IMG/VR virus record: IMGVR_UViG_2854744553_000002
Location: 2,106-66,105 of that record
From: a virus
Lineage: Duplodnaviria > Caudoviricetes
Direction: 5' to 3' (one strand)
Length of the DNA stretch: 64,000 nucleotides
Part shown: piece by piece, positions 32,502 to 61,369 of the stretch
Numbering within the stretch: the first letter of the stretch is position 1
Layout: each line of letters starts with the position of its first letter
Program-made: the position numbers and the translations under genes
The notes under the pieces: generated by a model
The model's input: only the letters and a program-made list of their open reading frames with translations
Told to the model about the DNA's origin: nothing
Databases searched by the model: none

Positions 32502-33632
32502 GTGAGCATGATAAAAAATGCAATTGATGCACTAGAAACAACTCATGATATATACCGAACCTGTGTAGAGCTACTCAGTGTTTTTATAGAAAAAAATAAA
32601 TCTAGACTAAACGACAATTCAATTGTAAATTTATTAAGAGCAAGAGATAGCTTCAACGAATATTTCGATAGAAGTGAACTCTCAATAGAGGACATTCCGG
32701 TAGCGATGAAGAATCTTCTAATATTTTTAACAAATATTGAAAAAGCAATTTCCGACATAGACAAGAAGGCCAGTACGGCCGTTTCTGGAGGTTTAGATGA
32801 AATTGAAAAGTATGTTGGAATGTCTATTTACAAAACAAGAAGACTAATTGAAGAATTCTCTCCAAAAGACATTCTTGAAAATCAAGAATCAAAATTGCAA
32901 AACTTAAAAAAAGTTACTAATTCAATAGAATCAAAAATTGAAAAACTAAATGAAATTATAAAAAAATCAAGTGACGAAATTCAAGCCCTATCAGCAACAA
33001 CCGACAACCACAAATTAACAATTGAGAAACTAAGCGAATTTAATGAAGTTAGGCTGAATGAACTAGAGGAGATATATAAAAAAAGAATTTCCGATCTAGA
33101 CATTCAACAAACAAAAGTAAATGAGACCGTAGGATTGATTGCAGGTGCTGCGATTATGGGGAAATATGAAAAAAATGCCCTTGCAGAACGAGAAGTCGCC
33201 AACAGCCTTCGACGTTACGCAATCGGCATTATGTCTGGAGTTATTATCCTAATGGCATACTCCTTTCACCAAATAACCACCACTGATTTCGATCTAAAAG
33301 AAAACGTACTACGCACAATCCTTGCCCTGTTCCTATCGATTCCAGCCGCTTATCTGGCGCGAGAATCTGCCAAACATCGCAAACAAGAATATACCCACTT
33401 ACAAACGGCTCTTGATTTAGCTGCATTTTCACCATACATTGAATCGCTACCTGCAGAAACACAGCATAAACTGAAGGAGGAAATGGCATCTCGTATATTC
33501 ACCGCTCGAAACTTTGATTACGTAACCAAAGAAAGCTACCCACTAAATATGCAGGAATTAATAATCGCAATCATGGATAAAATACCTAACAGGGAGCAAC
33601 AAGAAGAAGAGAAAAAGCCTTCCAAGACATGA
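32502..33632 (+). CDS. AT-rich coiled-coil protein with two TM segments (moron)
   Basis: TATAAT at 32468, AGGAG RBS, long heptad region, two hydrophobic helices, opposite to the late operon. Confidence 0.85.
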   Translation: MSMIKNAIDALETTHDIYRTCVELLSVFIEKNKSRLNDNSIVNLLRARDSFNEYFDRSELSIEDIPVAMKNLLIFLTNIEKAISDIDKKASTAVSGGLDEIEKYVGMSIYKTRRLIEEFSPKDILENQESKLQNLKKVTNSIESKIEKLNEIIKKSSDEIQALSATTDNHKLTIEKLSEFNEVRLNELEEIYKKRISDLDIQQTKVNETVGLIAGAAIMGKYEKNALAEREVANSLRRYAIGIMSGVIILMAYSFHQITTTDFDLKENVLRTILALFLSIPAAYLARESAKHRKQEYTHLQTALDLAAFSPYIESLPAETQHKLKEEMASRIFTARNFDYVTKESYPLNMQELIIAIMDKIPNREQQEEEKKPSKT

Positions 33633-36607: not shown

Positions 36608-37613
36608 GAATGACGCCTTTTTGTGTTTGCGTTGCGCCGACTGCCCAGTCGGCCTTGTAGTGCTCGCCTGGCCCGAAGAACGTGGCCGGCTGTTTCGTGA
36701 ATTGCGGCTCGGTGCGCGAGAGCAGCACGTAATTCGCATACCGTTGCACGCCAGCAAGGAGCGCTTCGGCCGGTACGCCCTCCTTCCGGCGGGCCATCCA
36801 GCCCTTGTACGAGTCCTTTTTGCTTGCACCGGGGCGCGGCGGGTACGCTTGCCAGGCCGTTTCGAATTCTTCGGGGTAAGGCTCGGGAGGCGAAGCCGAC
36901 GAAGGTTTTAGGTTTACTGGTTTATGGTTATTGGTTATTGGTTCTTGGTTAGTGTGCGACCGGTTAGGCGACCCGGCATGCGACACTGAGGCGACTTGGT
37001 ATGCGACCTGTATGCGATCCATTGCCGATATAAGCAACGGTTCCTGTGCGACCTCAACAGGAAATTCCTCGCCGCTGCGCACATCGGCATACTCGGCGAG
37101 CAAATCACCCTCTGCATCGCCCATGCATGCGACCGCGACCTGGTGCAGTACGAAGGCCTGTTTGCCATATTTGCTGCGCAGTTGATGCAGACGGCTTTTC
37201 ATGTTTGCAGTGACCCCGACCTTGACGGTCGTGGGGCTGACGCGCACGGCATACATGACGCCCTCGCCCGGCATGTATCGGCCGTTCTGATACCTGGTCG
37301 CGGCACTCTTCTTGCCGTTCGCCTTTGCGGTCTCAGCTTTAGCCTGATAGTCCGCAATCACCTGCTCGCAGACGTCGTGCCGGTAGCCCGCATCTGTCTT
37401 GAGGAACTTGAAGCGAAGCAGTCGCTCGACAATCGCGCGCTCGTCCGCCGCCTCGACGCCCAAGGCGTCGCACAGCACATCTATGTCGAGCGGAAGTGGC
37501 GCCTCGACGTCGTAGTAGACGTCCATCATGTCGCGATATATCCAGCGCGCCTGGCGAGACATATTCACCGTACCTGAGCGGAAATCGCCGATGTGGAAGG
37601 GGTAATAATTCAA
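36549..37613 (-). CDS. Replication initiator (YdaU/DUF1376-like) with an internal GIY-YIG/T5orf172-like domain
   Basis: MNYYPFHIGDF N-terminus; MYAVR...VKVGVT...RLHQL insertion; FETAWQAYP C-terminal domain. Confidence 0.85.
   Translation of the reverse strand: MNYYPFHIGDFRSGTVNMSRQARWIYRDMMDVYYDVEAPLPLDIDVLCDALGVEAADERAIVERLLRFKFLKTDAGYRHDVCEQVIADYQAKAETAKANGKKSAATRYQNGRYMPGEGVMYAVRVSPTTVKVGVTANMKSRLHQLRSKYGKQAFVLHQVAVACMGDAEGDLLAEYADVRSGEEFPVEVAQEPLLISAMDRIQVAYQVASVSHAGSPNRSHTNQEPITNNHKPVNLKPSSASPPEPYPEEFETAWQAYPPRPGASKKDSYKGWMARRKEGVPAEALLAGVQRYANYVLLSRTEPQFTKQPATFFGPGEHYKADWAVGATQTQKGVIHGKFGKQDYHKGVGADGTF
36903..37020. repeat. Putative replication origin: iterons plus a strand-biased tract
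   Basis: GCGA(C/T) cores at 36956, 36968, 36980, 36991, 37003 and 37014 (11-12 bp period) beside repeated TGGTT units. Confidence 0.7.
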
Positions 37614-38371
37614 GGCCGGGCCTCCATAAACAGTGATTCTTGAATCGGCGCTGACTTGCGGTTCCAGAAAGTGAGCGCCTGGTGCGACTCGATCCGCTCG
37701 CGCATGATCGCCGCCCTCGCCTCCTTGGTTGGCGGCGTGTAGGTGCCGCGCCAGGCCGAATCAATACCCACGTTTTGCCCGATGTTCGTGCTGTCGGCAC
37801 TGGCGAACGGGAAGCGTGAGAAGATGGCTGGGTCGAGCATACGCAGGCCGTGCAGCTTGCAGGCTGGCCGGCCAGATTTATCGCAGATGACGTCCATAGC
37901 CTGCGCCATGCGCGTCCACCATGCCGGCGTACCGATCTGCGCAAACTCGCCCGAACTGCCAAGGCAGATGCGCGGCCATTCGTTGACGAGGCAGTCCAGG
38001 CGGCCCAGCGATTCGTGCAAATGCCACACTGGCGCGCCAACATGCGGTGCCGACGTGCGCCAGGGCCATTCGGCCAGCAACGCGTCGTTGTTGACCTCGC
38101 TGCCATCGATGACGTCAGGGATTACCGCGAAATCGAAATTTGGGTAACGGTGCAACTCGCCCACCCATTCGTAAAAAAGTGACCAGTCTGTGATCGGCTG
38201 GCCGCTGCGCCAGGCTGAAAACGCCCCATTGTCGACGGCGAACGACTGCGCCACCTCCAAGGCGATGGTCAGCTGTTCTGGATGGCGGAATGAAACGAAG
38301 GCGTGCCCGCCACTGACGGCCCGCACAGCGGCCGTGGCCGGCGTGATGGGTAATCCGTGATAATGGATCAT
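37610..38371 (-). CDS. Putative TGT/DpdA-like fold protein
   Basis: DNGAFS, PDVI, PVWH, HGL and SADST motifs in TGT-barrel order. Confidence 0.55.
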   Translation of the reverse strand: MIHYHGLPITPATAAVRAVSGGHAFVSFRHPEQLTIALEVAQSFAVDNGAFSAWRSGQPITDWSLFYEWVGELHRYPNFDFAVIPDVIDGSEVNNDALLAEWPWRTSAPHVGAPVWHLHESLGRLDCLVNEWPRICLGSSGEFAQIGTPAWWTRMAQAMDVICDKSGRPACKLHGLRMLDPAIFSRFPFASADSTNIGQNVGIDSAWRGTYTPPTKEARAAIMRERIESHQALTFWNRKSAPIQESLFMEARP

Positions 38372-38499
38372 GGGCGCGCCTCCTGCGCACGCGCCACGCC
38401 GAACAGCGCAGCCACCAGCGGATCGCCCAAGGCGCCCGCCTTGCGGATCCAGTACTTGCTGCGCCAGTGCCGCTTAACGGTGGATTGTGTTTTGCTCAT
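38368..38499 (-). CDS. Small hypothetical protein (43 aa)
   Basis: ATGA overlaps at both ends; DPLVAALFG. Confidence 0.55.
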   Translation of the reverse strand: MSKTQSTVKRHWRSKYWIRKAGALGDPLVAALFGVARAQEARP

Positions 38500-39704
38500 A
38501 CTGCTTCCATTTCGAATATTGTGATTTGCCGAGGGTCGACCTCAGGAATCAGTGACAAGCGCGCTTCGCCAACTCGAGGCGCAGGCGTGCCGACCACCAC
38601 CTGGACGTCTGCAAGCAAGCTCGATTCCCCTTGGATGCGCTCGCGCGCGATCCCGGCGTAGGCCGGGTTTAGTTCTATGCCGATGCAATCGCGTTGCAGC
38701 CGATCTGCGACAAGGCCAGTGGTGCCAGCGCCGAAGAACGGATCCAGCACCGTGCCACCAGGTGGGCAGCCAGCGCGGATGCAAATCTCCGGCAATTCCG
38801 GCGGGAACGTGGCGAAGTGGGCCTCGGCGAACGAATGTGTGGCCATGGTCCAGACGCTACGTCGGTTGCGTAAGCCGGTTTCGTTCGGCGCGTTACCGTG
38901 CGTGGTGCGGTCGACGTCAGCATCGTTGTCGAAGGCGACGCCGGCCGTATAGACGCCACCGCCTCGAAACGACTTTGCACTACCCTTGAGCACACGGCCG
39001 CGCTCGCGGCCATCAGCGTCACTGCCGTGGCCGAAGCCGACACCATTACCGCGCGCGGATCGCTTCTGGGGCTTTTGGCCCGGCACCGCATAATCCTTGG
39101 TGCCGAAGCTATTGCGCGGGTGGTCGGCAAAGCCGACTGCCGGCTCCTTCACCGCCTCGGCGTCATAGAAATAGCTCGCACTCTTGCTCAGTAGGAAGAT
39201 GTACTCGTGGCTCTTGGTACAGCGGTCACGCACTGATTCGGGCATTGGATTCGGTTTGCTCCAGACGATGTCCTGGCGCACCCACCAGCCGGCGTCCTGC
39301 AGCGCAATCGCGAGCCGGTGCGGCATCATGCAGAGGTCCTTCGGTTTGAACCCCTCCAGTTTTTTGCGGTTAGGCTGCGTATTGACCATGCCGCGGCGGA
39401 TAAATCGCTCGCCTTGGTCGCCACCACCTGGCGCGCGGCCAACGGCGCCCGCGCCGGTGGCATAGCTGTCGCCCATATTGATCCAGCAGGTGCCATCAGC
39501 GCGCAGCACGCGGCGCGCTTCGTTAAAAACGTCGACCATCACCTCGATAAATTCCGCCGGGGTGGCTTCCAGGCCGATCTGGCCGTCGACGCCGTAGTCG
39601 CGCAAACCCCAATATGGCGGGCTGGTGACGATGCAGTGCACAGATTCGGCCGGCAGCGCGCGCAGCTGCTCGCGCACGTCGCCAATCATTATTGTTACGG
39701 TCAT
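38496..39704 (-). CDS. DNA amino-methyltransferase (N4-C/N6-A, beta class)
   Basis: TSPPYW, HFATFP and VLDPFFGAGTT motifs. Confidence 0.92.
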   Translation of the reverse strand: MTVTIMIGDVREQLRALPAESVHCIVTSPPYWGLRDYGVDGQIGLEATPAEFIEVMVDVFNEARRVLRADGTCWINMGDSYATGAGAVGRAPGGGDQGERFIRRGMVNTQPNRKKLEGFKPKDLCMMPHRLAIALQDAGWWVRQDIVWSKPNPMPESVRDRCTKSHEYIFLLSKSASYFYDAEAVKEPAVGFADHPRNSFGTKDYAVPGQKPQKRSARGNGVGFGHGSDADGRERGRVLKGSAKSFRGGGVYTAGVAFDNDADVDRTTHGNAPNETGLRNRRSVWTMATHSFAEAHFATFPPELPEICIRAGCPPGGTVLDPFFGAGTTGLVADRLQRDCIGIELNPAYAGIARERIQGESSLLADVQVVVGTPAPRVGEARLSLIPEVDPRQITIFEMEAV

Positions 39705-40147
39705 AACAGTCCCTCAGCTTTCAGGATTTCGTGTGTGCGGCCGACGGCCGCGCGAAACGCAGCCTCCAGGCCGGCCAGCGACAGATCGGCCGGGCGCGGG
39801 CGGCGGCCGTCGAGTACGTCGTGGCAGGCGCTGCAGCCGAACGCGGCAGCGGTGTCTGGCGCCTTCAGGCCCATGCCCTTCCCGTCCGCCAAGAAATTGC
39901 TGTGGCAGAGCACGGTGGTGTCGGGGTCGAAGTTGCAGACGGCCAGGCGCAGCGTGCAGTCCTGACCGCGCGCGGCGCGCCGGATCGGCGTCGAGCGTGG
40001 GCCTTTGGTCTTTAAGCCGGCCTTGCGCTTCGGCGCCGTGCGCTGGTGCGATTGCACGGAGAGCATGCCGGTGGTGGGCATGGGCGAGGTGCGCTTGAAT
40101 GGAGTGCGCGCAAGTGGCTTGCCGGCCTTCATGGGTGAGCGCTTCAT
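39701..40147 (-). CDS. DUF1364 (YbcO-like) putative nuclease
   Basis: ARGQDCTLR...C...TTVLCH...GMGLK...CSACHD. Confidence 0.85.
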   Translation of the reverse strand: MKRSPMKAGKPLARTPFKRTSPMPTTGMLSVQSHQRTAPKRKAGLKTKGPRSTPIRRAARGQDCTLRLAVCNFDPDTTVLCHSNFLADGKGMGLKAPDTAAAFGCSACHDVLDGRRPRPADLSLAGLEAAFRAAVGRTHEILKAEGLL

Positions 40148-40986
40148 TTACCACCGCCAATACTCAATGTGTTACTATTCCGCCAATTAAAACCGAGGAA
40201 ATCATGGTTGAGGAAAAGCTTATTAATTGGCAGCCATTGATTAGAGCGTGCAAATCTTTGAACTGGCCCTGGCGGCTGCTTGCTGGCGTCAGCATCCTTG
40301 GGATAATTGTTGAGCTTGGATACTTCGCGTTCTACGCGATACCTTGGCCGAAATTCGGAGTGGCGGAGTGGGCGTATTGGGTCGCAGCAATAGGAACAAC
40401 AGGTACTTTGATCGGAACATTGTGGATTGCGACGAGTGAAAATAGAAGGCGGCGAAACGATGCATCTGCAGTTGCACGCCTGACTGCTGCCGCTATGTAT
40501 TTTCAACATCTCCACAATCAAGCCAACGCAAACTTTGCACTCCACTGCCTTAAGGTGGCCAATAACCATGAGCTTTTGGCACTCAAGGGCATGGAACACA
40601 TTCTTATTCTCACCAAGAACGCTCACCGCCTCTTGGCAAAAGTTAACCAGTGGACTCCGACTGAGCTCCTTCGATTGGCGCCATTGCACGGCGACTGCGC
40701 CGCACAACTTGCTGCCGCACATGGGCGAATCGGCTCCACAATGTCGTTGCTCAGTGACATCGAAGAAAGCTCGCAGAATCAGGCCTCCTTCTTCGAGCAC
40801 CTGAGTACCAATTGCACGGTGTTGGAAAGTGCCGTTCAGCAACTTCAGAGCACCAGTCGAATATTTGAGACAGTGATAGATAATTCTTAACGGTTTTTGC
40901 GTTCCATCATGACTATCACTGAGGCGCCGACGCGTTGAAATGGCGCGCACGCCACGCCGTTTTTCGCAGGTAAAGTTCATCGTCAT
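40144..40986 (-). other. Stop-free antisense bridge ORF (280 codons)
   Basis: ATGA overlap with the PAPS-reductase stop and ATGA overlap with the DUF1364 start; translation not shown. Confidence 0.5.
40204..40890 (+). CDS. Membrane-anchored accessory protein, backwards in the operon (paralogue A)
   Basis: GAGG RBS; two TM segments ending AAIGTTGTLIGTLWIATSENRRR. Confidence 0.8.
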   Translation: MVEEKLINWQPLIRACKSLNWPWRLLAGVSILGIIVELGYFAFYAIPWPKFGVAEWAYWVAAIGTTGTLIGTLWIATSENRRRRNDASAVARLTAAAMYFQHLHNQANANFALHCLKVANNHELLALKGMEHILILTKNAHRLLAKVNQWTPTELLRLAPLHGDCAAQLAAAHGRIGSTMSLLSDIEESSQNQASFFEHLSTNCTVLESAVQQLQSTSRIFETVIDNS

Positions 40987-41975
40987 TCGCATAATCCGTA
41001 AGCAGAGCTGCACGCCGTTGGTTCGTCCAACGCTGTGAGCAGCGAAAATTGTTTGCCGCCACGGCTGGTCTTTGACCATTCGACCACCGATTCAATGGTC
41101 GACGCCTGCCCCGCGTGCGCCTTGGTTCCCATGTGGAAGAAAGACACTGGCGAACGCGGCCGGCACACCTCGGATACAAGGGCTTCCCATTCGGCGATCC
41201 GGGCGATATGCTCAGGGAACCGGCGCGACACCTCGTGCAACGCCCCTTTACTGCAGTTGATGCAAGGCATGCAGCCGACGCGTGACATTCCTTGCTTGTA
41301 GAGCGGATTCGGCTCGATGCCGGCCAGGCGGTGGGCTTCGAACACGTCGCAAACATTCCAGCGCAAGATTGGCCGGTAAGTGAACAGGCCGCCGCCAACG
41401 ACTTCGAAGTGTTTGACACACGCGCCAGTGCCTTGCAATCGCTCGCGGCGTGACTGGCTTTCATCGATCCGCACGCCCTGCCAGGACCAGATCGCATCGC
41501 ATTCATGATCGATCAATTCCATGGCGAACTCCGTCAATGGCTTGGTCTTGAGGTATTCCGTGCAGAACTGCCGCTTGCGCGATGGGAAGCCGCCGCGCAC
41601 CATGCGAAGGTCCAGGTACGGGTTTCCAGTTGGATGCAGTAGTTCAAGCGCACGCTGGGCCGCCTCTGCTGTCCAGTGGTACATGAACTTGCGCTTTCCA
41701 TACACAGCAGATTCGGGCTCTCCAGCTGCGATACGTGCCAAGTTGGCGCGTTTGGTAGCGAACTCATCAGCGAAGTCAGCTCGCACCACGTTGACATTGA
41801 TGCCTAGGGCCGCGGGCAAGTAGTCCAGCGCATATTCCAGCGTGCTCTCGTGCTCGTTGCCCGTATCGGCCATGACGAAGCGGCACGCGGCCATACCGTA
41901 CTGCTCGAGCGCGAGAATAGCGGTGGCTGTGCTGTCTTTGCCGCCCGAAAGTGAAATCAAGTGGATCAGGCTCAT
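40983..41975 (-). CDS. PAPS reductase family (PP-loop, Fe-S) protein
   Basis: SGGKDS, DTGNE, FCTEYLK, GVRIDES.SR, RVGCMPC motifs. Confidence 0.9.
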   Translation of the reverse strand: MSLIHLISLSGGKDSTATAILALEQYGMAACRFVMADTGNEHESTLEYALDYLPAALGINVNVVRADFADEFATKRANLARIAAGEPESAVYGKRKFMYHWTAEAAQRALELLHPTGNPYLDLRMVRGGFPSRKRQFCTEYLKTKPLTEFAMELIDHECDAIWSWQGVRIDESQSRRERLQGTGACVKHFEVVGGGLFTYRPILRWNVCDVFEAHRLAGIEPNPLYKQGMSRVGCMPCINCSKGALHEVSRRFPEHIARIAEWEALVSEVCRPRSPVSFFHMGTKAHAGQASTIESVVEWSKTSRGGKQFSLLTALDEPTACSSAYGLCE

Positions 41976-42736
41976 GATAAGATTTCCTTTTGACAAGGAA
42001 AACAATGACAAGCACCATCCGGCGCCACCGTGCGGCAATCACGATTTCGCTTTGCGCTGTAATTTTCACAACCCTCGGGGTGCTCAACTTGCCTTACTTG
42101 ACGCCATTTTGGACAACTCTGCAACCCGGTGATAAAGGAACTTGGAGCGGTGCTATCGGGACTGTAGCAACCTTGGTCGGTACCATCTGGCTTGCAACTA
42201 ATGAAAGCCGTAAACGAATCAGGGATGAGCGAGCATTGGCAATCGTTACTTGCATGAGCCTGCTTGTGCGACAGCTGAAAGCCTTGATTACCATCAAAAC
42301 CGTGCTGAATCAGCTCGAACATGAAATACCAGCTGACCTTGGCGTAAGTTTCCTGCAATGTTCTCAAATGTTGTCTCAAACCAAACTTTGGACCATTCAA
42401 GAGATAATTCCGATCATTGTGCTCCCGAACGACGCTGCAGCAGTACTCATACATGCCACCGAGGGAATCCGCCATTGCATTGTTGAGTTGCGCGACCTCT
42501 CGACAGAGTCGCGTGAATGTATGTTGCGGAATTTGCCGGATATCACTAGCCAACTGAAAACTGCCCACGACGCTATAGAGAGTGGTCATGCCGAATGCCA
42601 GAGAGCAGTTTATGGTCGATGATCGGCATTCAAAGATAGTCATTTCTCTCTCCGCACGCCATGCAGCGACCGTATCGACCGATCTAGCGGCGTTGCCGCC
42701 CTCGGACTTGAATGCGGTTGAAATTCTGAAATGCAT
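41972..42736 (-). other. Stop-free antisense bridge ORF (254 codons)
   Basis: GGAGG RBS, ATG 2 nt after the upstream stop, ends in ATGA overlap with the PAPS-reductase start. Confidence 0.5.
42005..42622 (+). CDS. Membrane-anchored accessory protein, backwards in the operon (paralogue B)
   Basis: AAGGA RBS; GAIGTVATLVGTIWLATNESRKR. Confidence 0.8.
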   Translation: MTSTIRRHRAAITISLCAVIFTTLGVLNLPYLTPFWTTLQPGDKGTWSGAIGTVATLVGTIWLATNESRKRIRDERALAIVTCMSLLVRQLKALITIKTVLNQLEHEIPADLGVSFLQCSQMLSQTKLWTIQEIIPIIVLPNDAAAVLIHATEGIRHCIVELRDLSTESRECMLRNLPDITSQLKTAHDAIESGHAECQRAVYGR

Positions 42737-42738
42737 GT

Positions 42739-43164
42739 TCAATCCTCCATCGCGCGCTTGATACCAGCGGCGTCGAGGCCAGCAGCCTTGCAACCCAGGC
42801 GAGTGGCGTAGAAATAGGTCATGTCGCCGCATGCGCGGCCGGCCGTGGCCAGGCCGGCGGCCACCAGGCGCTGCATTGCCTCGTGCTGCTGGCCGCTGCC
42901 GGCAGCAAAGTAATTGCGATAGCCCCAGCGATTCTTCGGCTTGCCCTGTACGGCGCCCAGCATGTGCTGCAGCTTGGCAAAGTCGCCAGGCATGATTGCA
43001 TCGCGGACGGCTGCCAGCGCGCAGGCGGCGCATTTGCCGTGCTGGGACAGTTGCTTGGCGGTGCTGGCCTTGCCGCAGGCGCATAGTTTGCGGATCAGCG
43101 AATAGGCGGGCGCGGCTTGGTTGGCCAGATGGTGGCGCGTAATTTGGGCCGGGTTTGTGATCAT
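42739..43164 (-). CDS. Hypothetical phage protein (frame is open back to GTG 43593)
   Basis: MITNPAQ...CACG...CAAC...LQHMLG...WGYRNYF. Confidence 0.7.
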   Translation of the reverse strand: MITNPAQITRHHLANQAAPAYSLIRKLCACGKASTAKQLSQHGKCAACALAAVRDAIMPGDFAKLQHMLGAVQGKPKNRWGYRNYFAAGSGQQHEAMQRLVAAGLATAGRACGDMTYFYATRLGCKAAGLDAAGIKRAMED

Positions 43165-43197
43165 GCTACGATACCTTTTTAGCAATGGGAGCCATAA

Positions 43198-43563
43198 ATG
43201 ACCTTGAATACCTTGCATTCCTTTGACGATCACATCTTGGATGTGGGTTTCGCACAAGTTTCTGACGGTTGGCGCGGCGAATACCGCATTGAGAGAGGCG
43301 GGGCAACGATTCACCGAGACCAAACTCGAAAAGTCGAATCCACCCCTGGCCTTGCTGAGAGCGCGGCACTTGAAGATGCGGAGGCTTGGGTGGAACGCAG
43401 CCAAGGTACGACGGTGGCTGTAAATGCCGGCGTATATGAAATGGGTTCGCAACAGATCGCGCGCGAATCGCGGAAATGGATTAAAGAAAATTTGCATGAC
43501 ACATCCAACTTCCTTGAAATCTTCCAAGTTGCACAACTCATCGCGTCGCCCGGCCGGAAATAG
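43198..43563 (+). CDS. Small accessory protein, backwards in the operon
   Basis: GGGAG RBS, TG-c-TACGAT extended -10 at 43164-43172, lower GC. Confidence 0.7.
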   Translation: MTLNTLHSFDDHILDVGFAQVSDGWRGEYRIERGGATIHRDQTRKVESTPGLAESAALEDAEAWVERSQGTTVAVNAGVYEMGSQQIARESRKWIKENLHDTSNFLEIFQVAQLIASPGRK

Positions 43564-43589
43564 CAATGCTGGATTGAGTACGCGTGCTT

Positions 43590-45833
43590 TCACGCCACCC
43601 TCGCAATCTCGCGCTCATGCGCGAAGTTGGCGAGGATCAAGGCCTTGGCCATGGGTGGGCAGACTGAATTGCCGCACATGCGCACTTGGGCGCTCTTCGT
43701 CAGTTTCAGGCCCTGTGCTGGGTCGTCGCCGATGATGTAATCGTCGGGGAAGCCCTGGGCCCGGAAAAGCTCGCGCGGCTGCAACATGCGCAGGCCAATA
43801 TCCACGATCTGATAGTCCTGGCCGTGGATCGTCACCAAGCCGAAGCGGTCGCGGCTCGTGACGGTGGCCAGCGGCCCGTCGATCTCCGGCGCCTGGTCGG
43901 TACCGTAATAGCTCAGCAGGAATGCGCGCACCTCGGCATGGTGCTGTCCGCCGGCGCTGACCGTGCCCAGCGGCTCGTCCGTGCCGGCCGCCGTGCTGGT
44001 GCCGCGCAGCTTGACCAGGTTGCTGGTGACGATGCCCAGCGCGTGCGGCGCACCAGCTGGGTTTTCCTTCGGCCCGGCCGTGATCGTCGGCAGCGGCGTG
44101 TTCATGTCGCTACCGGTGGCGCCGGTGCGGAATTTAGTGATGTGCGCCGACACCATCGAGAAATGGCCGCCCTTGACCTGGGCGCAGATGGTGCGCAGCG
44201 GCTCGTCGACTGGCATCACGCGCTGATTGCTCGCGTTGGCGTGCTCCGTCAAGAACGCCGTCACTAGGCTGTGGTGGTCGCATGCGGTGACCGTGCCGAT
44301 AGGATCGGCCAGGTCCGAGCCGACGACGCCCGTGTAATGCTTCGCCAGGAACGCTGTGGCCACGGCCTTGTTGCCGCTGGCCTTCACGGTGCCCAGTGGC
44401 GCCTCGACGTCGTGCGCGCCAGTACCCCAGCGCTTCACGCCGCTGGGCGTTACCTCGCCGTGCGCGGCGTCGACCAGCACAGCCGTCACCAGCGCTGCGT
44501 CGGCCTTCGACGTGGCGGTCGCAGTTGGCTCGTTCAGGCCGCGCGGGCGGCTCTGGCCGGCGCGGCCGCCGACGCCGGTAAGCAGCGCGGACACGAGCGC
44601 CTGGTTGCCGGCAGCGGTGATCGTTGGTACCGGCATATCGGCGCCAGCGCCGGGGTGGCCGGTGGTATTGGTCATGACGAATGGCACAAGCTCAGCTTCG
44701 ACCAGCGCATGCTTCGCGGCCGCGCCCACCACAGTGCCCAGCGGTTTCTCGATATCAAGGGCACGCGGCGCCTGGCCTTCGCGCTCGCCGTAGCCGACTT
44801 GCACCAGCGTGGCCACGCCCAACGCCTTCTCGCCGCGGTGAGCGCCGGTGATGGTGCGGAACGGTTCCCCGATGGATTCGGTGCGGTCGCCGCCCTGGTG
44901 CGTGACCGGGACGATGGTCGGCGCGCAGAAATAGCTGTCGTTGCGCGCCAGCAGCGTGCCGAATGGGCGCGCAGTTGGGCGCGGCTCGCCGGCGCGCGCC
45001 GGGCCGCCGGCGCCGACGATGAACGGATCGGCCGCGTCAACCACGTAGCGCATGATGCCCTTGGCGATCCGGCGCAGCGTCGCTGGCGCCAGCGGCCGGT
45101 CGCGCTCGAAGATCGACGGGCACGGCAAGCTGAAGTCGATGCACTCGGCCGCCGTGCGGTACGGCAGCAGCTTGCCGGCGCGCACGCCGATGCTGTCTGG
45201 CGCGCCATGGGTAGGCTCCGGCCACTTGATGGCGATACCGTCGCGGCGCGCCACCAGGAAGAAGCGTTTGCGGATGGTGGGCGTGTCGTGGTCGCAGCCG
45301 CGCATTTCGCGGTAGTCGACGGTATAGCCGTGCCCGCGCAGCTGGCGAATGAAACTATCGAAGGTCTTGCCCTTCTTCGCCGGATCCGGCTTGGCGCTGC
45401 CGTCCGCCGCAACCAGCAGCGGGCCCCACGTTTTGAATTCCTCGACGTTTTCCAGCATGATCACGCGCGGCTTGCACTTGGCCGCCCAGCGCAGCGTCAC
45501 CCAGGCCAGGCCTCGGATGCGCTTCTCGACGGGCTTGCCGCCCTTGGCCTTGCTGAAATGCTTGCAGTCTGGCGACAGCCAGACCAGACCGACCGGACGA
45601 TTGTTCGTGACCTTGATCGGGTCAACGTCCCACACGCTCTCGCACAGGTGCGTGGTGTGCGGGTGGTTCGCCGCGTGCATGGCCAGCGCTTCGGGATCGT
45701 GGTTGATAGCGATATCGACCGGGCGGCCGAATGCCTGCTCCAGGCCAGTGCTAGTGCCACCACCGCCCGCAAAGTTGTCGATAATCAACTCTTTGCCAAG
45801 GTCGAGGGACAAGGTGAAAGCATCGCGCTTCAT
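43590..45833 (-). CDS. C5-cytosine DNA methyltransferase with an expanded repetitive variable region
   Basis: FAGGGG, SPDC, ENV, RKRFF and GNSV motifs. Confidence 0.93.
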   Translation of the reverse strand: MKRDAFTLSLDLGKELIIDNFAGGGGTSTGLEQAFGRPVDIAINHDPEALAMHAANHPHTTHLCESVWDVDPIKVTNNRPVGLVWLSPDCKHFSKAKGGKPVEKRIRGLAWVTLRWAAKCKPRVIMLENVEEFKTWGPLLVAADGSAKPDPAKKGKTFDSFIRQLRGHGYTVDYREMRGCDHDTPTIRKRFFLVARRDGIAIKWPEPTHGAPDSIGVRAGKLLPYRTAAECIDFSLPCPSIFERDRPLAPATLRRIAKGIMRYVVDAADPFIVGAGGPARAGEPRPTARPFGTLLARNDSYFCAPTIVPVTHQGGDRTESIGEPFRTITGAHRGEKALGVATLVQVGYGEREGQAPRALDIEKPLGTVVGAAAKHALVEAELVPFVMTNTTGHPGAGADMPVPTITAAGNQALVSALLTGVGGRAGQSRPRGLNEPTATATSKADAALVTAVLVDAAHGEVTPSGVKRWGTGAHDVEAPLGTVKASGNKAVATAFLAKHYTGVVGSDLADPIGTVTACDHHSLVTAFLTEHANASNQRVMPVDEPLRTICAQVKGGHFSMVSAHITKFRTGATGSDMNTPLPTITAGPKENPAGAPHALGIVTSNLVKLRGTSTAAGTDEPLGTVSAGGQHHAEVRAFLLSYYGTDQAPEIDGPLATVTSRDRFGLVTIHGQDYQIVDIGLRMLQPRELFRAQGFPDDYIIGDDPAQGLKLTKSAQVRMCGNSVCPPMAKALILANFAHEREIARVA

Positions 45834-46234
45834 GGCCGCACCTCCGCAGCTGGCCGGCGAACGACCACGACAGGCATTGCGCCCACCGTGCCACGAAAGT
45901 GTGGCGTGGCCACCTGGCCAGGCAGTTCAGGCTCAGCGCCCAGCAGCGCCGCGCGCGAGGCGTCTTTCAGCACGTAGCGGATGCCCGCCAGGCGCACATT
46001 ACCCTGGATGAAGCGGGAAAAAATCATGCGCAGGCGGTGTTCCATGCCCGCTTCTTCGATATCGAAGCCAGCGCGTTCGCAGATTTGGTAGAAGGTGCCA
46101 GGCCCGGCCAGCATCGCCTGCAGTAGCGCGTACGAGCGGGAACCTTGCTTCGGCAGCGTGACGCCAGAACGGCGGCGCTTCGTCTTATTTACGCCAAAAG
46201 TCGGGCGCGGGCGATTGTCAGCTTGGCCAGTCAC
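45830..46234 (-). CDS. Hypothetical (possibly winged-helix) protein
   Basis: GTGA and ATGA overlaps at its ends. Confidence 0.6.
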   Translation of the reverse strand: MTGQADNRPRPTFGVNKTKRRRSGVTLPKQGSRSYALLQAMLAGPGTFYQICERAGFDIEEAGMEHRLRMIFSRFIQGNVRLAGIRYVLKDASRAALLGAEPELPGQVATPHFRGTVGAMPVVVVRRPAAEVRP

Positions 46235-46989
46235 AATGCCACCTCGGCCAGAACGGAATCGCGCCATTTCACTTGCTGGATAGGCGCGCCGCTGGAATGC
46301 GCCTTGCCGGTGTCCGCCACGAAAGCATGCGCACGCCCCTTCTCCGTCGGCACCCAATGGCCTGCGATATTGTCTTGCAGGCCGGCCTGCACCAGCAGCT
46401 GGTTGAACGCCTTGCCGCTCTTGACGAAGCGGCTGCCCAGCTCCGTCGGCGTGTAGTAAATCTCCTGGCTGGGCGTGGCCAGGTGCGTGCGATCCATCAG
46501 CTGCAGCATGTTGATGCCGGTCAGCGCGGCCGTGCCCTGGTTCGCGCTGATGGCTGCGGCATTCTTGTCGAGGCCAATCAGGCGCGCGATGCCGAAGATG
46601 GCACGGAATTCCTTGGCGGGCGAGATTGCGCTGCGCGCAGTCGGCGCGGCTGGCGCCTGGCCGGTGGCCACCGCGTCGAAGGTGCGGATAACTTCCAAGT
46701 GGAACTTGGGACTGATCCACATGGCGTATGCGTACACCAGCTCCTTGCAGACGAAGGTGCCGCCGTTGCGGCCCTGGGTGGTGATGGTAGACAAACTCTG
46801 CGCCGGCGCAGAGTTTAATTCCGCTTCCAGCTCCTGGATTTCCGGGCGGCGGAAGAAGAATGCAGGCTGATGGCGACTTTCCGCGCCAGCAGCCTTGTGC
46901 AGATCGTTGAGGCAAAACCGGCCTTCTTTATCGACCGCGATCAGCGTATTCGCTATCGTGATGCCTTTGTGTTGTACAATTTCGGTCAT
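46231..46989 (-). CDS. KilA-N domain protein with antirepressor-type C-terminus
   Basis: GRFCLNDLHKAAG...GTFVCKELVYAYAMWISPKFHL; TPTELG...FNQLL...WVPTEKG. Confidence 0.88.
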   Translation of the reverse strand: MTEIVQHKGITIANTLIAVDKEGRFCLNDLHKAAGAESRHQPAFFFRRPEIQELEAELNSAPAQSLSTITTQGRNGGTFVCKELVYAYAMWISPKFHLEVIRTFDAVATGQAPAAPTARSAISPAKEFRAIFGIARLIGLDKNAAAISANQGTAALTGINMLQLMDRTHLATPSQEIYYTPTELGSRFVKSGKAFNQLLVQAGLQDNIAGHWVPTEKGRAHAFVADTGKAHSSGAPIQQVKWRDSVLAEVAL

Positions 46990-47207
46990 AAATTCTTTCG
47001 CGAATTTTTGTTGTTTCAAGGAAGCCCGCCTGCCAGCGGGCTTTTTTCATTTCTGGCCTTGCAGTTCCTGCAGGATTGCTTCGTAGTGCCGGCGCGTCCG
47101 GACGTGGCCGGGGTCGACTGGCAATTCGCGCTCGCGGTGCTCTTGCTGCTGGGCGCCCTGCTCGGCCTGCGCCGGCGTAGCGCCTTCCGGCTGCATCGTC
47201 GTCCAGG

Positions 47208-48625: not shown

Positions 48626-48692
48626 TTTACCATAAAGATAAACTTTATGCGGAACTTTGTTTATCTTTTTGGTTGTTTATCTTTTTGTTAAA
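48626..48692. promoter_or_regulatory. Right operator: three 17-bp sites
   Basis: TTTACC-ATAAA-GATAAA (48626), TTTATC-TTTTT-GGTTGT (48660), TTTATC-TTTTT-GTTAAA (48676). Confidence 0.8.
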
Positions 48693-48710
48693 TTAGAAGA
48701 CCATCACGCG

Positions 48711-49418
48711 ATGACTAGAGAAGAAATCAGACGAGAGAACGCCCGCGCCCTTGCCGACCTTGCAGGCGGACAGGTGGAATTCGGGCGCGCCCTCAATATG
48801 GTCCCGTCGCAGGTAAGTCAAATAATTGGCAAGACGCCAATCAAAAACATCGGCAATTCAATCGCGAAGCGTATTGAGCAGGCTTTCGAGAAGCCAGCTG
48901 GCTGGCTTGATGTGAGGCACGCAGTGGATCAGGACGACGAACAAGTCGACGCGCCTGGCGCGCGGCCGGTGACTGACGATGATGATATGGCCCCTGTTAT
49001 GGTCGCCATACGCATGGTTCCCGAGCATTTACGGGCGGGAATTACCGGTTTTGAAGCAGATAGCGTTTTTGATGACGTCGGGCATTTATACGTCCCCCGC
49101 CAGTGGCTCGAAGAAAACGACCTCACTACGCACCAGCTGCTCGCGATCAAAGTGAAGGGCGAAAGCATGGTGCCGATGATGTACGAAGGCGACGTGGCTG
49201 TCGTCAACACAAAAGATACGAGCCGTGTGAGTGGCGGCGTTTTCGCACTGAATTACAAGGGAGAGTCGGTTGTCAAGCGCCTGCGCTACGAGCGGCGCGA
49301 ATGGTATCTGGCGTCCGAGAACCCTGATTTCCAACAAGAGCCGTGCCGTACCGGCGACTGCAAAGTAATCGGCCGCGTTGTCCGTTTCGAGCCACGTAAT
49401 TTCAAGGATCGACTGTGA
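48711..49418 (+). CDS. cI: CI-like repressor (HTH plus S24 peptidase)
   Basis: N-terminal HTH; VKGESM catalytic Ser and VVKRL Lys; VIGRVV. Confidence 0.93.
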   Translation: MTREEIRRENARALADLAGGQVEFGRALNMVPSQVSQIIGKTPIKNIGNSIAKRIEQAFEKPAGWLDVRHAVDQDDEQVDAPGARPVTDDDDMAPVMVAIRMVPEHLRAGITGFEADSVFDDVGHLYVPRQWLEENDLTTHQLLAIKVKGESMVPMMYEGDVAVVNTKDTSRVSGGVFALNYKGESVVKRLRYERREWYLASENPDFQQEPCRTGDCKVIGRVVRFEPRNFKDRL

Positions 49419-50350: not shown

Positions 50351-51268
50351 ATGGAACAATCCCCGCAAAAAAATATTGCCAGCATGGCAGCAGCGAATAT
50401 GGCTGAAGCGAAATCAATTCCTAGCCAACCAATTGCGGTACCGTTGTTTACAACATCTGCATATTTAAGCTTTGCTGAATGGCCAAAAGAGGCGACTGCG
50501 GCTTGCGTACATGCATGCGAAATTCATCACCCGAGCGCCGGCCGCGTTACTGCATATGCAAAAATGTATCGCGCCACTGTAGGTGGCCGAGGATTGTTAA
50601 ATGAAATTTCTGCCTTTATTCTTGGAAGGGCTTTAGGTGCACCAATGGCTGATCACGGCTTTGTTTGCATGATTCCGTTAAGCAGATTATCCTCACCACC
50701 GTCTCACCATAAATGGATACGAGAGTTACTGGCGAAAAATAAAAATGCAGATTTCCCAGCATTTTGCACTAGTAAAATGGATGGAAGTGATGCGGTCATA
50801 GAATACCTTAGAGCAGGGTCCAAAGTATTTTCCGAAGATATTCGAAAATGGAGGGCGCTACCCCTCGCATCCAGATTTGATCAACATATTTCCAACACAG
50901 ATCGACATCTTGGCAATCTTCGGCGCACTGCCAAGCATACATATAAACTATTCGACCACGGACGCATTGTGACGGATGATGGCGATTGGATTGCTAGCGA
51001 CCTTGCCTCACGGACAGGAAAGAAAAATACTGACAGCCTTCTGCAGGAGGCTTGGCCTGATGGTTGTCCGGCTGAAGTTGTTAGTGACATTCTCCTACAT
51101 CTTGGCTATCATGAGACGGCTTTAACTATTGCGCTGCCAGATTTGCGCTGGTGGTGGTCACGCCTTGCTGAGCCATCCGATGCGGCAAGCTTTGAAAAAT
51201 ACTTGATCTATAGAGCCGCGGAGCTCAAGACAATGTATCAGACGGCATACGGCCAGCTACCACTATGA
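50351..51268 (+). CDS. HipA-like (PI3/4-kinase fold) kinase
   Basis: AYAK, NEI, FDQHISNTDRHLGN catalytic loop, LFDHG; low GC. Confidence 0.85.
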   Translation: MEQSPQKNIASMAAANMAEAKSIPSQPIAVPLFTTSAYLSFAEWPKEATAACVHACEIHHPSAGRVTAYAKMYRATVGGRGLLNEISAFILGRALGAPMADHGFVCMIPLSRLSSPPSHHKWIRELLAKNKNADFPAFCTSKMDGSDAVIEYLRAGSKVFSEDIRKWRALPLASRFDQHISNTDRHLGNLRRTAKHTYKLFDHGRIVTDDGDWIASDLASRTGKKNTDSLLQEAWPDGCPAEVVSDILLHLGYHETALTIALPDLRWWWSRLAEPSDAASFEKYLIYRAAELKTMYQTAYGQLPL

Positions 51269-52152
51269 ACTATGATTTGCTACGAGCAGATGCTCAACAT
51301 ATTCAGCCTGCGCCAATTCAAGGCGAGTGGCAAATTATTCAATTTCAACCAGACTTTACCACGGGCGAAATATTCAATATCGGCGTTATTTTCTTCGAAA
51401 AAAGAAAGAAAACACCTCATGTGAAGCTATTGCCCAGTCTCGCTGGATTTCGATCTATTTACGGAGCAAATGGCGCGGACAACTTCAAATTTCTTCTGCG
51501 CCTACTTCACGAGCAGTTAGTAGAGCTTCATGAGCTACGATCGCCAAGCCCGCAAATTATATTTGGTAAAAAAAAATTTACCTCGGGGAATAGCCCACAA
51601 GAAATCATCTCCCATTTATATAAAAATATGGTCACGTTGGCCAGGGCAAAAGATGAAGCCGAGGATGACGCTAACGGTTTCTCTTCACTAAAAACAGAAG
51701 AGTTACGTAGACGCGTATTTAAAGCGGCCCAGAAAAAGATGGGAAATGGTTGGTCATCAATATTTCGGAGTGATCCGATATCTGTTTCCGATAACCGCGG
51801 CATGCGACACTCCCTAGACCTTCCAATCTGGCGTGGCGAGGACCTTTTAAGTGCTCAAATTTATGGGACTATACTATCTGCTCAGTTCAGATCGGATGCC
51901 TACCGGTCAGCTTCCCTTTCGACCGGATATGTTAATTTCAATCAAGCTGCTGAGATTGCAAAATCAGCCAAAGGTGGACTACTGATACTTCGTCCATCAA
52001 AAGAAAACACCGCATTTGATGAACAATTGCGCGCAGAGATCGATAACGATATTGATAAAATTACATGGCCATATATCAAACGCAGGGGAATTAAAATCCA
52101 TGTTGCCGATTCGGTCGACGAGTTGGCCAATGCAGCATTAGCCTTGCTATGA
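51265..52152 (+). CDS. DUF3037-like partner protein
   Basis: IIQFQPDFTTGEIFNIGVIF signature; ATGA overlap with the kinase. Confidence 0.75.
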   Translation: MNYDLLRADAQHIQPAPIQGEWQIIQFQPDFTTGEIFNIGVIFFEKRKKTPHVKLLPSLAGFRSIYGANGADNFKFLLRLLHEQLVELHELRSPSPQIIFGKKKFTSGNSPQEIISHLYKNMVTLARAKDEAEDDANGFSSLKTEELRRRVFKAAQKKMGNGWSSIFRSDPISVSDNRGMRHSLDLPIWRGEDLLSAQIYGTILSAQFRSDAYRSASLSTGYVNFNQAAEIAKSAKGGLLILRPSKENTAFDEQLRAEIDNDIDKITWPYIKRRGIKIHVADSVDELANAALALL

Positions 52153-59357: not shown

Positions 59358-60677
59358 ATGTTTTTCAAGAACCTCCAGATTTACCGCTTGCCCGGCTCTT
59401 GGGCCATGACGGCCGCAGTGCTCGAGCAGGCGCTGGCGCCGCAGCAGTTCACGCCCGCTACCAGCATGGACCTGGTGCGCCAGGGCTGGGCCGCGCCGCG
59501 CGGCGCCGGCGCGCCGCTGGTGCACGCAGTCGGCGACCAGTTCCTGCTGCAGCTGAAAACCGAGAAGAAGCTGCTGCCGTCGACCGTGGTCAACCAGGTC
59601 GCCGCCGCCCGCGCGCTGGAAATGGAAGAGGCCCAGGGCTTCGCGCCCGGCAAGAAGGCAATGAAGGAACTGAAAGAGCGCGTCACCGACGAGCTGCTGC
59701 CGCGCGCGTTCGCCATCCTCAGCACCACGGCCGTGTGGATTGACCCGGTGAACGGCTGGCTGGTGGTAGACGCGGCCAGCCCGGCCAAGGCCGATGAAGT
59801 GATCAAGCTGCTGCTCAAATCCGTAGACAAGCTGCCGCTGGAAAGCCTGCGTGTGCAGCGCTCGCCGGTGGGCGCGATGACGGAATGGCTGCAGGCGGAC
59901 GAATCCCCTACCGGCTTCACGGTCGACCAGGATGCGATCATGCGCGCCACGGGCGAGAGCAAGGCCCAGGTGGCGTACAAGCGCCACACGCTGGAAGCGG
60001 ACGATATCCGCCGCCACATCGCCGCCGGCAAGCAGTGCACCCGCCTGGCCATGACCTGGAGCGACAAGATCAGCTTCGTGCTAGACGAGTCGCTGGCCAT
60101 CAAGTCCATCAAGCCGCTAGAGATCATCAAGGAAAGCGCCACTCGCAACGACGACGAGCGCTTCGACAGCGATTTCGCGCTGATGACGGGCGAGCTGGCG
60201 AAGATGCTAGCCGACCTGGTCGAGGTGCTGGGCGGCGAGGCCGACGTGGAGACGCAAGCAGCGGGCCCGGCTGCTGCCGGCCAGCAGAAGATCGAACGAG
60301 CCGTGAACTTGACTGCCGATCTGTACAAGCTACGCGCCCGTTATCGCGATGTGCTCAACGAGCTGTATGACAGCACCGTGCAGCCGGCCGTTGCCCGCGT
60401 GCGCGAACACATGGCGGAAACCGCCGAGGGCGCAATTAAATCGGCGCTGACGCTGGCCAAGGAGCTTCCTGGCGGCTCACAATCCGCCGACCTGCTCCTA
60501 GTAGCCGCCGTTGAAATCATGGAACCGAGCCCACGGCCGGCAACGGGCGATGCCCCTGTCCGACAGCAGCGGCCGGCGCTGATGCTTAAGGCGATGGAGG
60601 GCTCGGTAGCGGGGCCTATGCAATTGAATGGGACCCGTGAAATAGTAACTAACGAAAAACCTGATCAATCATGCTAA
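59358..60677 (+). CDS. rdgC: RdgC recombination-associated protein with a C-terminal extension
   Basis: MFFKNLQIYRL...EKKLLP...LLPRAF...FDSDFALMTGEL. Confidence 0.92.
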   Translation: MFFKNLQIYRLPGSWAMTAAVLEQALAPQQFTPATSMDLVRQGWAAPRGAGAPLVHAVGDQFLLQLKTEKKLLPSTVVNQVAAARALEMEEAQGFAPGKKAMKELKERVTDELLPRAFAILSTTAVWIDPVNGWLVVDAASPAKADEVIKLLLKSVDKLPLESLRVQRSPVGAMTEWLQADESPTGFTVDQDAIMRATGESKAQVAYKRHTLEADDIRRHIAAGKQCTRLAMTWSDKISFVLDESLAIKSIKPLEIIKESATRNDDERFDSDFALMTGELAKMLADLVEVLGGEADVETQAAGPAAAGQQKIERAVNLTADLYKLRARYRDVLNELYDSTVQPAVARVREHMAETAEGAIKSALTLAKELPGGSQSADLLLVAAVEIMEPSPRPATGDAPVRQQRPALMLKAMEGSVAGPMQLNGTREIVTNEKPDQSC

Positions 60678-61369
60678 GAAAAAATTGCCTTAGCAGCGGT
60701 ATCGAAGTCCTGCTTGGCCAGTCGCGCTACCTCTGGCCAAATATTTGCGCTATTCCACAAGCTACTGGCGCTAAATTTAAGCTCGCCCTCTTCCCAGGCG
60801 CGCAGGAGGTGCTGATCAAGTGTCGCCAAAGCATCGCGAATTCTAAGAACTGTCTGAACCAGCTCTTGGGATCCCATTTCATGCATTGGAATCTGATCAA
60901 TCAAGCGGAGCGCATTCGCAAATTGGGGAATCCCTTGGTAATTGCTAAGTGCAATCACCGCATAAATCCTGTCATCCTGCGGAAGGATGGGCATGGCTTT
61001 CTCCTTCTTCCTGGCAATCAGCTCGATGCCCTTTACTTCATTGCCAATCGCTGTGATCTGCCTACATGCCTCATCAAGGACCGCACCAACGCTATCAATT
61101 TTGCGGCGCAGAGTTCGCTCATCCGCCTTGATCATAAGTTGAGCGGCATGATCACCTTGCAAACGCACCACATAGAGCGCCAGAAAGATAGTAAAAAACG
61201 CAAATATCGCCTGAGCCCAATACGCTATCTCAGCCTTGCCGTATATCGAACTCGTGTCGGTCAAAGCTACCCGCATCGCAGCAAAAAGAAATGTACATCC
61301 AATTGCAAAAAATATGCCGAGAAGAATGTTCGTCCATGTTTGATTTTTCATAGGGCAATATTATCATGA
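60671..61369 (+). other. Stop-free antisense bridge ORF (232 codons)
   Basis: ATG overlaps the rdgC end (ATGCTAA); TGA overlaps the ASCH start (ATGA). Confidence 0.5.
60674..61351 (-). CDS. Membrane-anchored accessory protein, backwards in the operon (distant paralogue C)
   Basis: Two TM segments incl. AYWAQAIFAFFTIFLALYV; TG-a-TAATAT upstream; low GC. Confidence 0.8.
   Translation of the reverse strand: MKNQTWTNILLGIFFAIGCTFLFAAMRVALTDTSSIYGKAEIAYWAQAIFAFFTIFLALYVVRLQGDHAAQLMIKADERTLRRKIDSVGAVLDEACRQITAIGNEVKGIELIARKKEKAMPILPQDDRIYAVIALSNYQGIPQFANALRLIDQIPMHEMGSQELVQTVLRIRDALATLDQHLLRAWEEGELKFSASSLWNSANIWPEVARLAKQDFDTAAKAIFS

Follow-up and report, generated by a model that had tools for sequence, protein, structure and literature searches.

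Stop-free antisense frames opposite backwards accessory genes in prophage early operons: candidate bridges for ribosome passage

Morons are independently expressed accessory genes of prophages, and sieB is the superinfection-exclusion gene of phage lambda. In 1993, Ranade and Poteete reportedly described SieB as a membrane protein with its own promoter, which P22 is said to counter by an antisense RNA. Leader peptides and upstream open reading frames (ORFs) are cases in which being translated is what counts, and the peptide itself is immaterial. In phage lambda, the N antitermination complex renders early transcription resistant to Rho, and translating ribosomes shield nascent RNA from Rho, the loss of translation leading to polarity on downstream operon genes, according to the passages of PMC12360218 that deal with these subjects. 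In Pseudomonas phage Fc02, the sections of the report cited here describe olg1/olg2 as expressed in the lysogen and antisense to early-operon gene 10, the two strands being used in different phases of the life cycle (PMC9936078). A genome survey, in the sections considered here, found antisense stop avoidance in the -1 register without negative selection on antisense translation, and its authors speculate that translation may serve other ends than making essential proteins (bioRxiv 10.1101/724807). Here, we analyzed a stretch of 64,000 nucleotides (nt) from a virus (Duplodnaviria; Caudoviricetes; positions 2,106 to 66,105 of IMG/VR record IMGVR_UViG_2854744553_000002; the whole stretch is referred to as the window), in which four accessory (cargo) genes of low G+C (GC) content lie backwards in early operons, each covered on the operon strand by a stop-free frame joined end to end with the neighboring genes. 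These open frames are highly non-random, and persist in dozens of diverged prophages and over several families of cargo.

Three of the cassettes belong to a chain of seven minus-strand ORFs (38496..45833; assigned by coordinates and Pfam/PHROG families) in the leftward early operon, in the order: a C5 methyltransferase gene (43590-45833), a frame (b3) fused to a phrog_13561-like gene (42739-43164; PHROG match), b2, a PAPS reductase gene (40983-41975; with a weak QueC match too), b1, a YbcO-like nuclease gene (39701-40147), and an N6/N4 methyltransferase gene (38496-39704). No untranslated gap of more than 2 nt was found within this chain. The cargo genes, known as ORFs with translations, lie on the opposite (plus) strand: m1 (40204..40890; 228 amino acids, aa) between the PAPS reductase and YbcO-like genes; m2 (42005..42622; 205 aa) between the phrog_13561-like and PAPS reductase genes; m3 (43198..43563; an orphan of 121 aa) between the C5 methyltransferase and phrog_13561-like genes. 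A fourth, m4 (60674..61351, minus strand; 225 aa), is placed backwards in a plus-strand recombination operon, and was found by a scan for low-GC ORFs without antisense stops.

Frame b1 (40144..40986, minus strand; 280 codons) is the codon-aligned antisense of m1, and is tied by ATGA overlaps to the PAPS reductase stop at its start and the YbcO-like start at its end. Frame b2 (41972..42736, minus strand; 254 codons), the codon-aligned antisense of m2, starts at an ATG preceded by GGAGG and located 2 nt past the upstream TGA, while an in-frame TTG overlaps that stop (TTGA); it ends in an ATGA on the PAPS reductase start. Frame b3 (42739..43593, minus strand) begins with GTG 43593, which overlaps the methyltransferase stop (GTGA), is antisense to m3 over codons 1-143 (43593-43165), and continues in frame into the phrog_13561-like gene (ATG 43164 to 42739). 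Frame b4 (60671..61369, plus strand; 232 codons), over m4, shares its first 7 nt with the end of an RdgC-like gene (59358-60677) and terminates in an ATGA on the start of the ORF at 61366-61755. The stop-start overlaps with both neighbors that characterize translational coupling were therefore present in the window, b3 being fused downstream. The frames b1-b3 are all codon-aligned with their cargo, the non-coding spacers on both sides are likewise open in frame, and no Pfam or PHROG family was found for b1. The first-pass annotation had described three backwards lower-GC genes, each spanned by an uninterrupted operon-strand frame, together with the ATGA, GTGA, and GGAGG junctions; the coordinates and junctions both hold, whereas the fourth cassette, at 60671-61369, had been overlooked.

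In the codon-aligned register, and in no other, each antisense stop corresponds to a single sense codon (TTA, CTA, or TCA), and all three have synonyms; the register is thus explained by the genetic code, and, for the same reason, a bridge costs the cargo protein nothing. The caveat attached to the first-pass annotation, that shadow ORFs arise most easily in this register, therefore turns into a part of the explanation: no other register has stops that can be removed synonymously. Neither TTA, CTA, nor TCA was found in m1, m2, or m3, against 13.3, 12.2, and 5.3 antisense-stop codons, respectively, predicted from the third-position A use of each gene in other codon families (P(0) of 6e-8, 5e-8, and 1e-4); m4 also had none, against 7.2. 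Applied to four low-GC control genes of the window (at 582, 32502, 50351, and 51265), the same model gave observed/expected values of 12/15.8, 33/31.3, 16/19.2, and 20/19.8, with longest open antisense runs of 43-50 codons, and in five operon genes it was accurate within a factor of ~2.6. Synonymous resampling (20000 trials per gene) never produced an open frame for m1, m2, or m4, and did so 10 times for m3; since this procedure used the codon usage of the control genes, which are lower in GC than the cargo, it is a generous test, and the internal model is the more conservative one. The first-pass annotation had used the short antisense ORFs of the accessory genes at 582, 32502, 50351, and 51265 as an internal control; the checks that it proposed were borne out by the codon counts (0 in the three cargo genes against 12-33 in other low-GC genes) and by the near absence of open frames after shuffling. 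High-GC genes of the window often have long shadow ORFs in this register on their other strand (e.g., 568 aa opposite the methyltransferase), and the frames over the cargo might, in principle, be further shadows of the permissive codon-aligned register that arose by chance and under no selection. However, at a GC content of third codon positions (GC3) of ~0.5, 5-14 stops are expected per gene, the open lengths are not those predicted by codon composition, and chance would also have to account for 30 of 41 saturated relatives being open (see below); we give it practically no weight.

Relatives of m1 and m2 were found by a family-profile search of all six-frame ORFs of at least 100 codons in one-genome-per-species contigs, viral contigs, and 401 genomes of one host's family. 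Forty-one distinct ORFs were obtained, including m1 and m2, in which 5-17 antisense stops were expected per gene: 30 had none (per-gene P(0) of 4e-4 to 1e-8), seven had 1-3, and four had 6-14. These relatives share no more than 53% identity and their synonymous sites are saturated, yet stops never appear in the open members; it follows that selection must keep the frame open in every lineage separately. The first-pass annotation had asked whether homologues keep an open, end-coupled antisense frame, and at 20-50% identity 30 of the 41 have an open one, 24 of these 30 being NTGA-coupled downstream.

The pooled codons of the 30 open genes included no CTA among 470 CTN, no TCA among 209 TCN, and no TTA among 182 TTR; these zeros follow by construction from the definition of the open set, and the information resides in the proportion open (30/41) and in the free use of other A-ending codons. 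The latter made up 621 of the 2455 codons of the remaining four-fold families and 574 of the 985 of the remaining purine-ending pairs. An avoidance of the three trinucleotides at the DNA level was considered and ruled out: TTA, CTA, and TCA are common out of frame, with 351 and 187 occurrences in the two other frames. The median open runs in the other two antisense frames were 71.5 and 58.5 codons.

TTA, CTA, and TCA are among the rarest codons of GC-rich hosts, the high-GC genes of the window have few of them, and codon optimization is offered as one explanation of antisense ORFs in the sections of the genome survey considered here (bioRxiv 10.1101/724807). The open antisense frame may, accordingly, be a by-product of rare-codon selection on cargo translation. 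Against this, other A-ending or NTA codons were used freely in the same genes (GCA, 236/859; GTA, 80/437; ATA, 90/528), the low-GC genes of the same phage contain the three codons 12-33 times each, and cargo codon use can explain neither the open flanking spacers nor the NTGA-coupled ends. Rare-codon selection is, therefore, a very improbable explanation, albeit with slightly more to commend it than chance.

Openness depends on context. The members with many stops (6, 14, 9, and 9) are all co-oriented with their chromosomal neighbors, and none of the four is embedded backwards in an operon: the 6-stop member adjoins a Na/H exchanger gene, the 14-stop member a metallo-beta-lactamase gene and a convergent dehydrogenase gene, and the two 9-stop members a reverse transcriptase gene with a HEPN protein gene and a cytochrome P460 gene, respectively. 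The GC content of the host or flank was ruled out as a confounding factor, since it does not separate the two classes: the 14-stop member (L035) has a flank GC of 0.554, and five members at 0.537-0.555 have no stops. In two of the relatives with few stops (L003, antisense 3832-4487; L015, 3673-4443), the codon-aligned bridge is cut by 3 stops, and operon-strand ORFs in other frames tile the remaining gap and end at or overlap the next start; these would need internal starts.

The ends of the open frames were also examined in the relatives. Downstream, an operon-strand ORF of at least 60 aa begins in an NTGA overlap with the bridge stop in 24 of the 30 open cases, and in three more the ATGA is present with no ORF of at least 60 residues in the available stretch. 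At the other end, the start codon of the bridge frame forms such an overlap with the stop of the upstream operon gene in 16 of 30, while others begin 1-11 nt away; several open cases had no clear upstream gene by the heuristic used.

Open antisense frames were not confined to the m1/m2 family. Among ten loci of the m4 family in viral contigs, eight had 0 stops (7.8-13.1 expected), one had 1, and one had 12 (12.0 expected); the last heads its own co-oriented cluster of low-GC genes behind an AT-rich intergenic region. A third family (L014 and L040) had 0 stops against ~8.5 expected, while a fourth (family B; L006 and L011), located at the m3 slot, was uninformative with only ~2 expected. At this slot, L006 has the same fused form of bridge as the window, and L011 a separate, ATGA-coupled bridge. 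Two loci contain two tandem backwards cargo genes in one codon register (L037 1375-2856 and L040 937-2130), and a single antisense frame is open over both genes and the spacer between them, for 522 and 425 codons, respectively. Since several cargo families show open frames, the feature follows the operon position and not one gene family. Four extra low-GC ORFs with 0 antisense stops (L003, L015, L042, and L050) were set aside as probable shadows, their translations being implausible by eye.

We then considered which strand is under selection. Relatives compared pairwise at 35-50% identity differed by 0.47, 0.42, and 0.66 at the first, second, and third positions, respectively, of the cargo codons, and antisense identity in the same pairs was approximately half of the sense identity. 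Furthermore, m1 and m2 are paralogues (BLASTP E 6e-16), whereas b1 and b2 are not significantly alike (E 0.08). This substitution pattern and the similarity of m1 to m2, as opposed to that of b1 to b2, identify the cargo frame as the one under protein-level selection. At shared four-fold codon sites, the third base was identical in 2471 of 8730 cases (0.283), against 0.251 from composition; third-position identity being near the composition expectation, the antisense strand imposes no residue-level constraint. Even where the cargo columns are most conserved, Arg, Ser, Cys, and Gly all occur as the antisense residue. Long open frames are thus present on both strands, as in overlapping genes, while purifying selection on the product was found for the cargo frame only. 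What is maintained on the antisense strand is openness alone, and not its residues.

These results also bear on the opposite proposal, that the operon-strand ORFs, which are longer and fit the overlap pattern of the operon, are the only real genes and that the cargo frames are their shadows. The cargo frame is marked as selected by the substitution pattern and protein similarity, and a hydrophobic motif is conserved in it; the cargo family exists alone, with a closed antisense frame, in chromosomal contexts; and a conserved promoter-like motif and a ribosome-binding sequence precede the cargo starts. We consider this proposal scarcely credible, on a par with chance.

The promoter-like motif, TGnTAnnAT, precedes the cargo start by no more than 70 nt in 26 of the 41 relatives, mostly by 15-37 nt, with a chance expectation of ~0.01 per interval searched, and we take it to fit the extended -10 promoter consensus. 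The window has no more than eight such sites, counting both strands, and four of them precede m1, m2, m3, and m4. The m1 motif (40170..40178, plus strand) starts 34 nt upstream of the m1 start codon; in the m2 motif (41975..41983, plus strand), the T at 41975 is the last base of CAT, the complement of the PAPS reductase start; the m3 motif TGCTACGAT (43164..43172, plus strand) begins 34 nt upstream of the m3 start and abuts the complement of ATG 43164; the m4 motif TGATAATAT (61358..61366, minus strand) begins 15 nt upstream of the m4 start, a spacing that would fit a leaderless or near-leaderless transcript. In m2, m3, and m4, the TG of the motif lies directly against the CAT that complements the start codon of the operon gene next in line. 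The motif is shared by m3, m4, and the third and fourth cargo families, and its conservation suggests that the cargo is probably expressed in the lysogen. The remaining four sites are located at 52053 (plus strand), 52231 (minus strand), 17435 (plus strand), and 27111 (minus strand); the first two border the intergenic stretch that follows the gene at 51265-52152, and are possible early promoters. A sigma-70 -35/-10 scan of 39600-43800, which does not cover extended -10 promoters, gave 0 sites.

Other signals around the cargo were weaker. The only candidate terminator was a weak 5-bp hairpin with a T run (40941-40954) after m1, nothing of the kind being found behind m2 or m3. The ribosome-binding sequences of the divergent m2 and PAPS reductase genes, one on each strand, both lie in a 7-bp inverted repeat (41983-42001), and a hairpin was predicted there on both strands with a modest z-score. 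CCTCC...GAGGG repeats like that of m2 are visible upstream of many relatives. Since a clear 7-bp hairpin is present only at m2, masking of the ribosome-binding sequence by a hairpin was rejected as a general feature of bridge ends.

We propose that the bridges are translated ORFs selected for the passage of ribosomes and not for their product, and assign this reading, the best supported of those considered, a probability of roughly 65%. A low-GC cargo gene, usually encoding a small protein with an apparent two-helix membrane anchor, lies backwards among the closely spaced genes of a prophage early operon. During lysogeny, these operons would be repressed, and the cargo transcribed from its own putative extended -10 promoter. 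After induction, early transcription would run antisense through the cargo; ribosomes leaving the upstream gene would restart at the overlap, read the 140-310 codons of the bridge, and terminate on the next start codon. The early mRNA would thus have no long untranslated stretch and, given what is generally known of Rho, may be shielded from Rho-dependent polarity. Ribosome cover would probably also block pairing of the early mRNA with the cargo mRNA, and the bridge would preserve translational coupling to the downstream gene.

The strongest competitor of this proposal is that the antisense frames encode proteins that are used, as real antiparallel overlapping genes that need no conserved sequence. 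In its favor, the frames are open and conserved as ORFs, with the coupling usual for operon genes, and both strands of a Pseudomonas phage antisense pair are reported as active in the sections cited here (PMC9936078). The dependence on context fits as well, a chromosomal copy of the cargo needing no antidote. Sense and antisense peptides may bind each other, and one possibility is a disordered or hydropathy-complementary polypeptide that neutralizes the cargo during lytic growth of the phage itself. On the other hand, a used protein is difficult to reconcile with a third-position identity so near to composition and with antisense residues that are free at the most conserved cargo columns, nor do b1 and b2 resemble each other significantly or match Pfam or PHROG families. 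Moreover, unrelated cargo families would need unrelated bridge proteins with one shared role, and the coexistence at one slot of fused (the window and L006) and separate (L011) forms is hard to square with a defined protein. We therefore regard used proteins as unlikely, while allowing them considerably more room than rare-codon selection. The preference for passage of ribosomes over real overlapping genes, between which the first-pass annotation had left a choice, is likewise favored by the non-embedded relatives and their 6-14 stops.

Several points weigh against selection for ribosome passage. The seven relatives with 1-3 antisense stops indicate that continuous cover by a single frame is not absolute. 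Some downstream operon genes carry their own ribosome-binding sequences, and coupling is, therefore, not obligatory for them. A polypeptide of 140-310 unselected residues is costly, which could argue for the use of the product. The neighboring genes in the related loci were called by ORF length and GC3 heuristics, with no curated annotation, and the contrast with lambda sieB, described below, is a single case.

The cargo proteins themselves gave few matches. Their genes have a GC content of 0.48-0.53 (m1-m3, 0.50-0.525), against 0.59-0.68 in the flanking operon genes, and thus show the composition unlike neighboring phage genes that is expected of morons. Hydrophobic stretches at the N-termini of m1 and m4 were judged by eye to be two membrane helices in each; the helical C-terminal part of m1 was aligned by an Atlas model, and a conserved hydrophobic motif is kept across the m1/m2 family. 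The m1 protein has nine database relatives, and relatives of the cargo proteins come from Janthinobacterium and Duganella. No family was found for m1-m4 in Pfam or PADLOC, and membership of the SieB family was not supported, m1-m3 being without any Pfam family, SieB included. The only PHROG match of m1 was a weak one to 'membrane protein' (E 0.006), and the ESM Atlas returned hypothetical-protein clusters only, plus a DUF4760 lead below threshold at 0.79. No match to the m1 protein was found in 50,697 phage records, and the nearest isolated phage, BgManors32, is without the cassettes. For m3, only 3 close relatives were found among 5.8 billion proteins, with no DNA for these; relatives with DNA amounted to two weak partial matches in the 401 genomes and none in viral contigs. 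Homology of m4 to the m1 family was considered and is unestablished (hhalign probability of 16%). One chromosomal relative of m1 (L008 62-3660) is co-oriented between a HEPN protein gene and a reverse transcriptase gene, in a setting that looks like a defense island; this neighborhood hints that the m1 family may be a defense effector.

The source record is that of a 66 kb virus, whose methylase and PAPS reductase genes resemble those of Burkholderia phiE125-like temperate phages. A CI-like repressor is encoded at 48657-49418 (plus strand), and two of the low-GC control genes are downstream of, and co-oriented with, its gene. The leftward early operon also includes replication genes, a resolvase gene, and a regulator (46234-47019, minus strand; PHROG match to a transcriptional regulator or anti-repressor), while the second early operon runs rightward (plus strand) and includes RecT, NinB, the RdgC-like protein, and others. 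The minus-strand ORFs 45830-46915 and 46234-47019 overlap in different frames, with a PHROG match in the second only. A further gene of the leftward operon, which matches the PHROG 'queuine tRNA-ribosyltransferase' family (37613-38371), and the PAPS reductase gene with its weak QueC match adjoin the two DNA methyltransferase genes; together with the methylases, the genes at 37613-38371 and 40983-41975 may form a DNA-modification module, possibly of the 7-deazaguanine type. The non-embedded low-GC accessory genes at 582-1151 and 51265-52152 match the PADLOC candidate defense families PDC-S67 (E 4e-13) and PDC-M66B (E 2e-6), respectively. No RNA run containing the locus was found; six wastewater metagenome runs contain 0.07-0.11 of the sampled words.

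In a full-text literature search, no account was found of coupled ORFs that bridge backwards genes. Embedded antisense ORFs are usually lost in annotation, since the pipelines discard them, whereas such ORFs are here under selection, and not for their product. If our proposal is true, temperate phages have a new way of placing prophage-expressed genes in lytic operons without polarity and without an antiterminator, where lambda uses N instead; a concrete reason would also be available for a part of the unexplained antisense stop avoidance across prokaryotic genomes. A simple design rule would follow: to place a gene backwards within an operon, it could suffice to recode three codons and to set the frame at the two junctions. 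We lean slightly toward the broader view that bridge ORFs are a general, unrecognized class of long reading frame in bacteria and phages, free of stops through synonymous choices alone in the gene opposite and selected only for the crossing of inserts by ribosomes.

In comparison with known systems, lambda sieB is likewise a small gene (185 codons) opposite the early lytic pL operon, between N and ral; unlike the cassettes, it has 9 TTA/CTA/TCA codons, a longest antisense ORF of 82 codons, and no bridge. Leader peptides and upstream ORFs are short and located in leaders, whereas the bridges comprise 140-310 codons, are placed between one operon gene and the next, and are written opposite a working gene. 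For Fc02, the sections cited here describe active exclusion proteins encoded by each of the two strands (PMC9936078), while in the present cassettes the operon-strand product is without residue constraint and open frames occur over unrelated cargo genes. The sections of the genome survey considered here give no genomic logic for antisense stop avoidance (bioRxiv 10.1101/724807); in the present loci, it is tied to backwards embedding in a tight operon and to NTGA coupling at either end, and is lost when the gene is not embedded. The cassettes share with the morons of temperate phages a lower GC content, a promoter-like element of their own, and a position between conserved phage genes. Classical morons, however, are located in intergenic gaps, and one accessory gene of the window is of this gap-sited type: the gene at 32502-33632 (GC 0.36) is placed backwards between the early and terminase genes with a gap of ~250 nt on each side, and has 33 antisense stops. 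The bridged cassettes contrast with it in leaving no untranslated gap on the operon strand.

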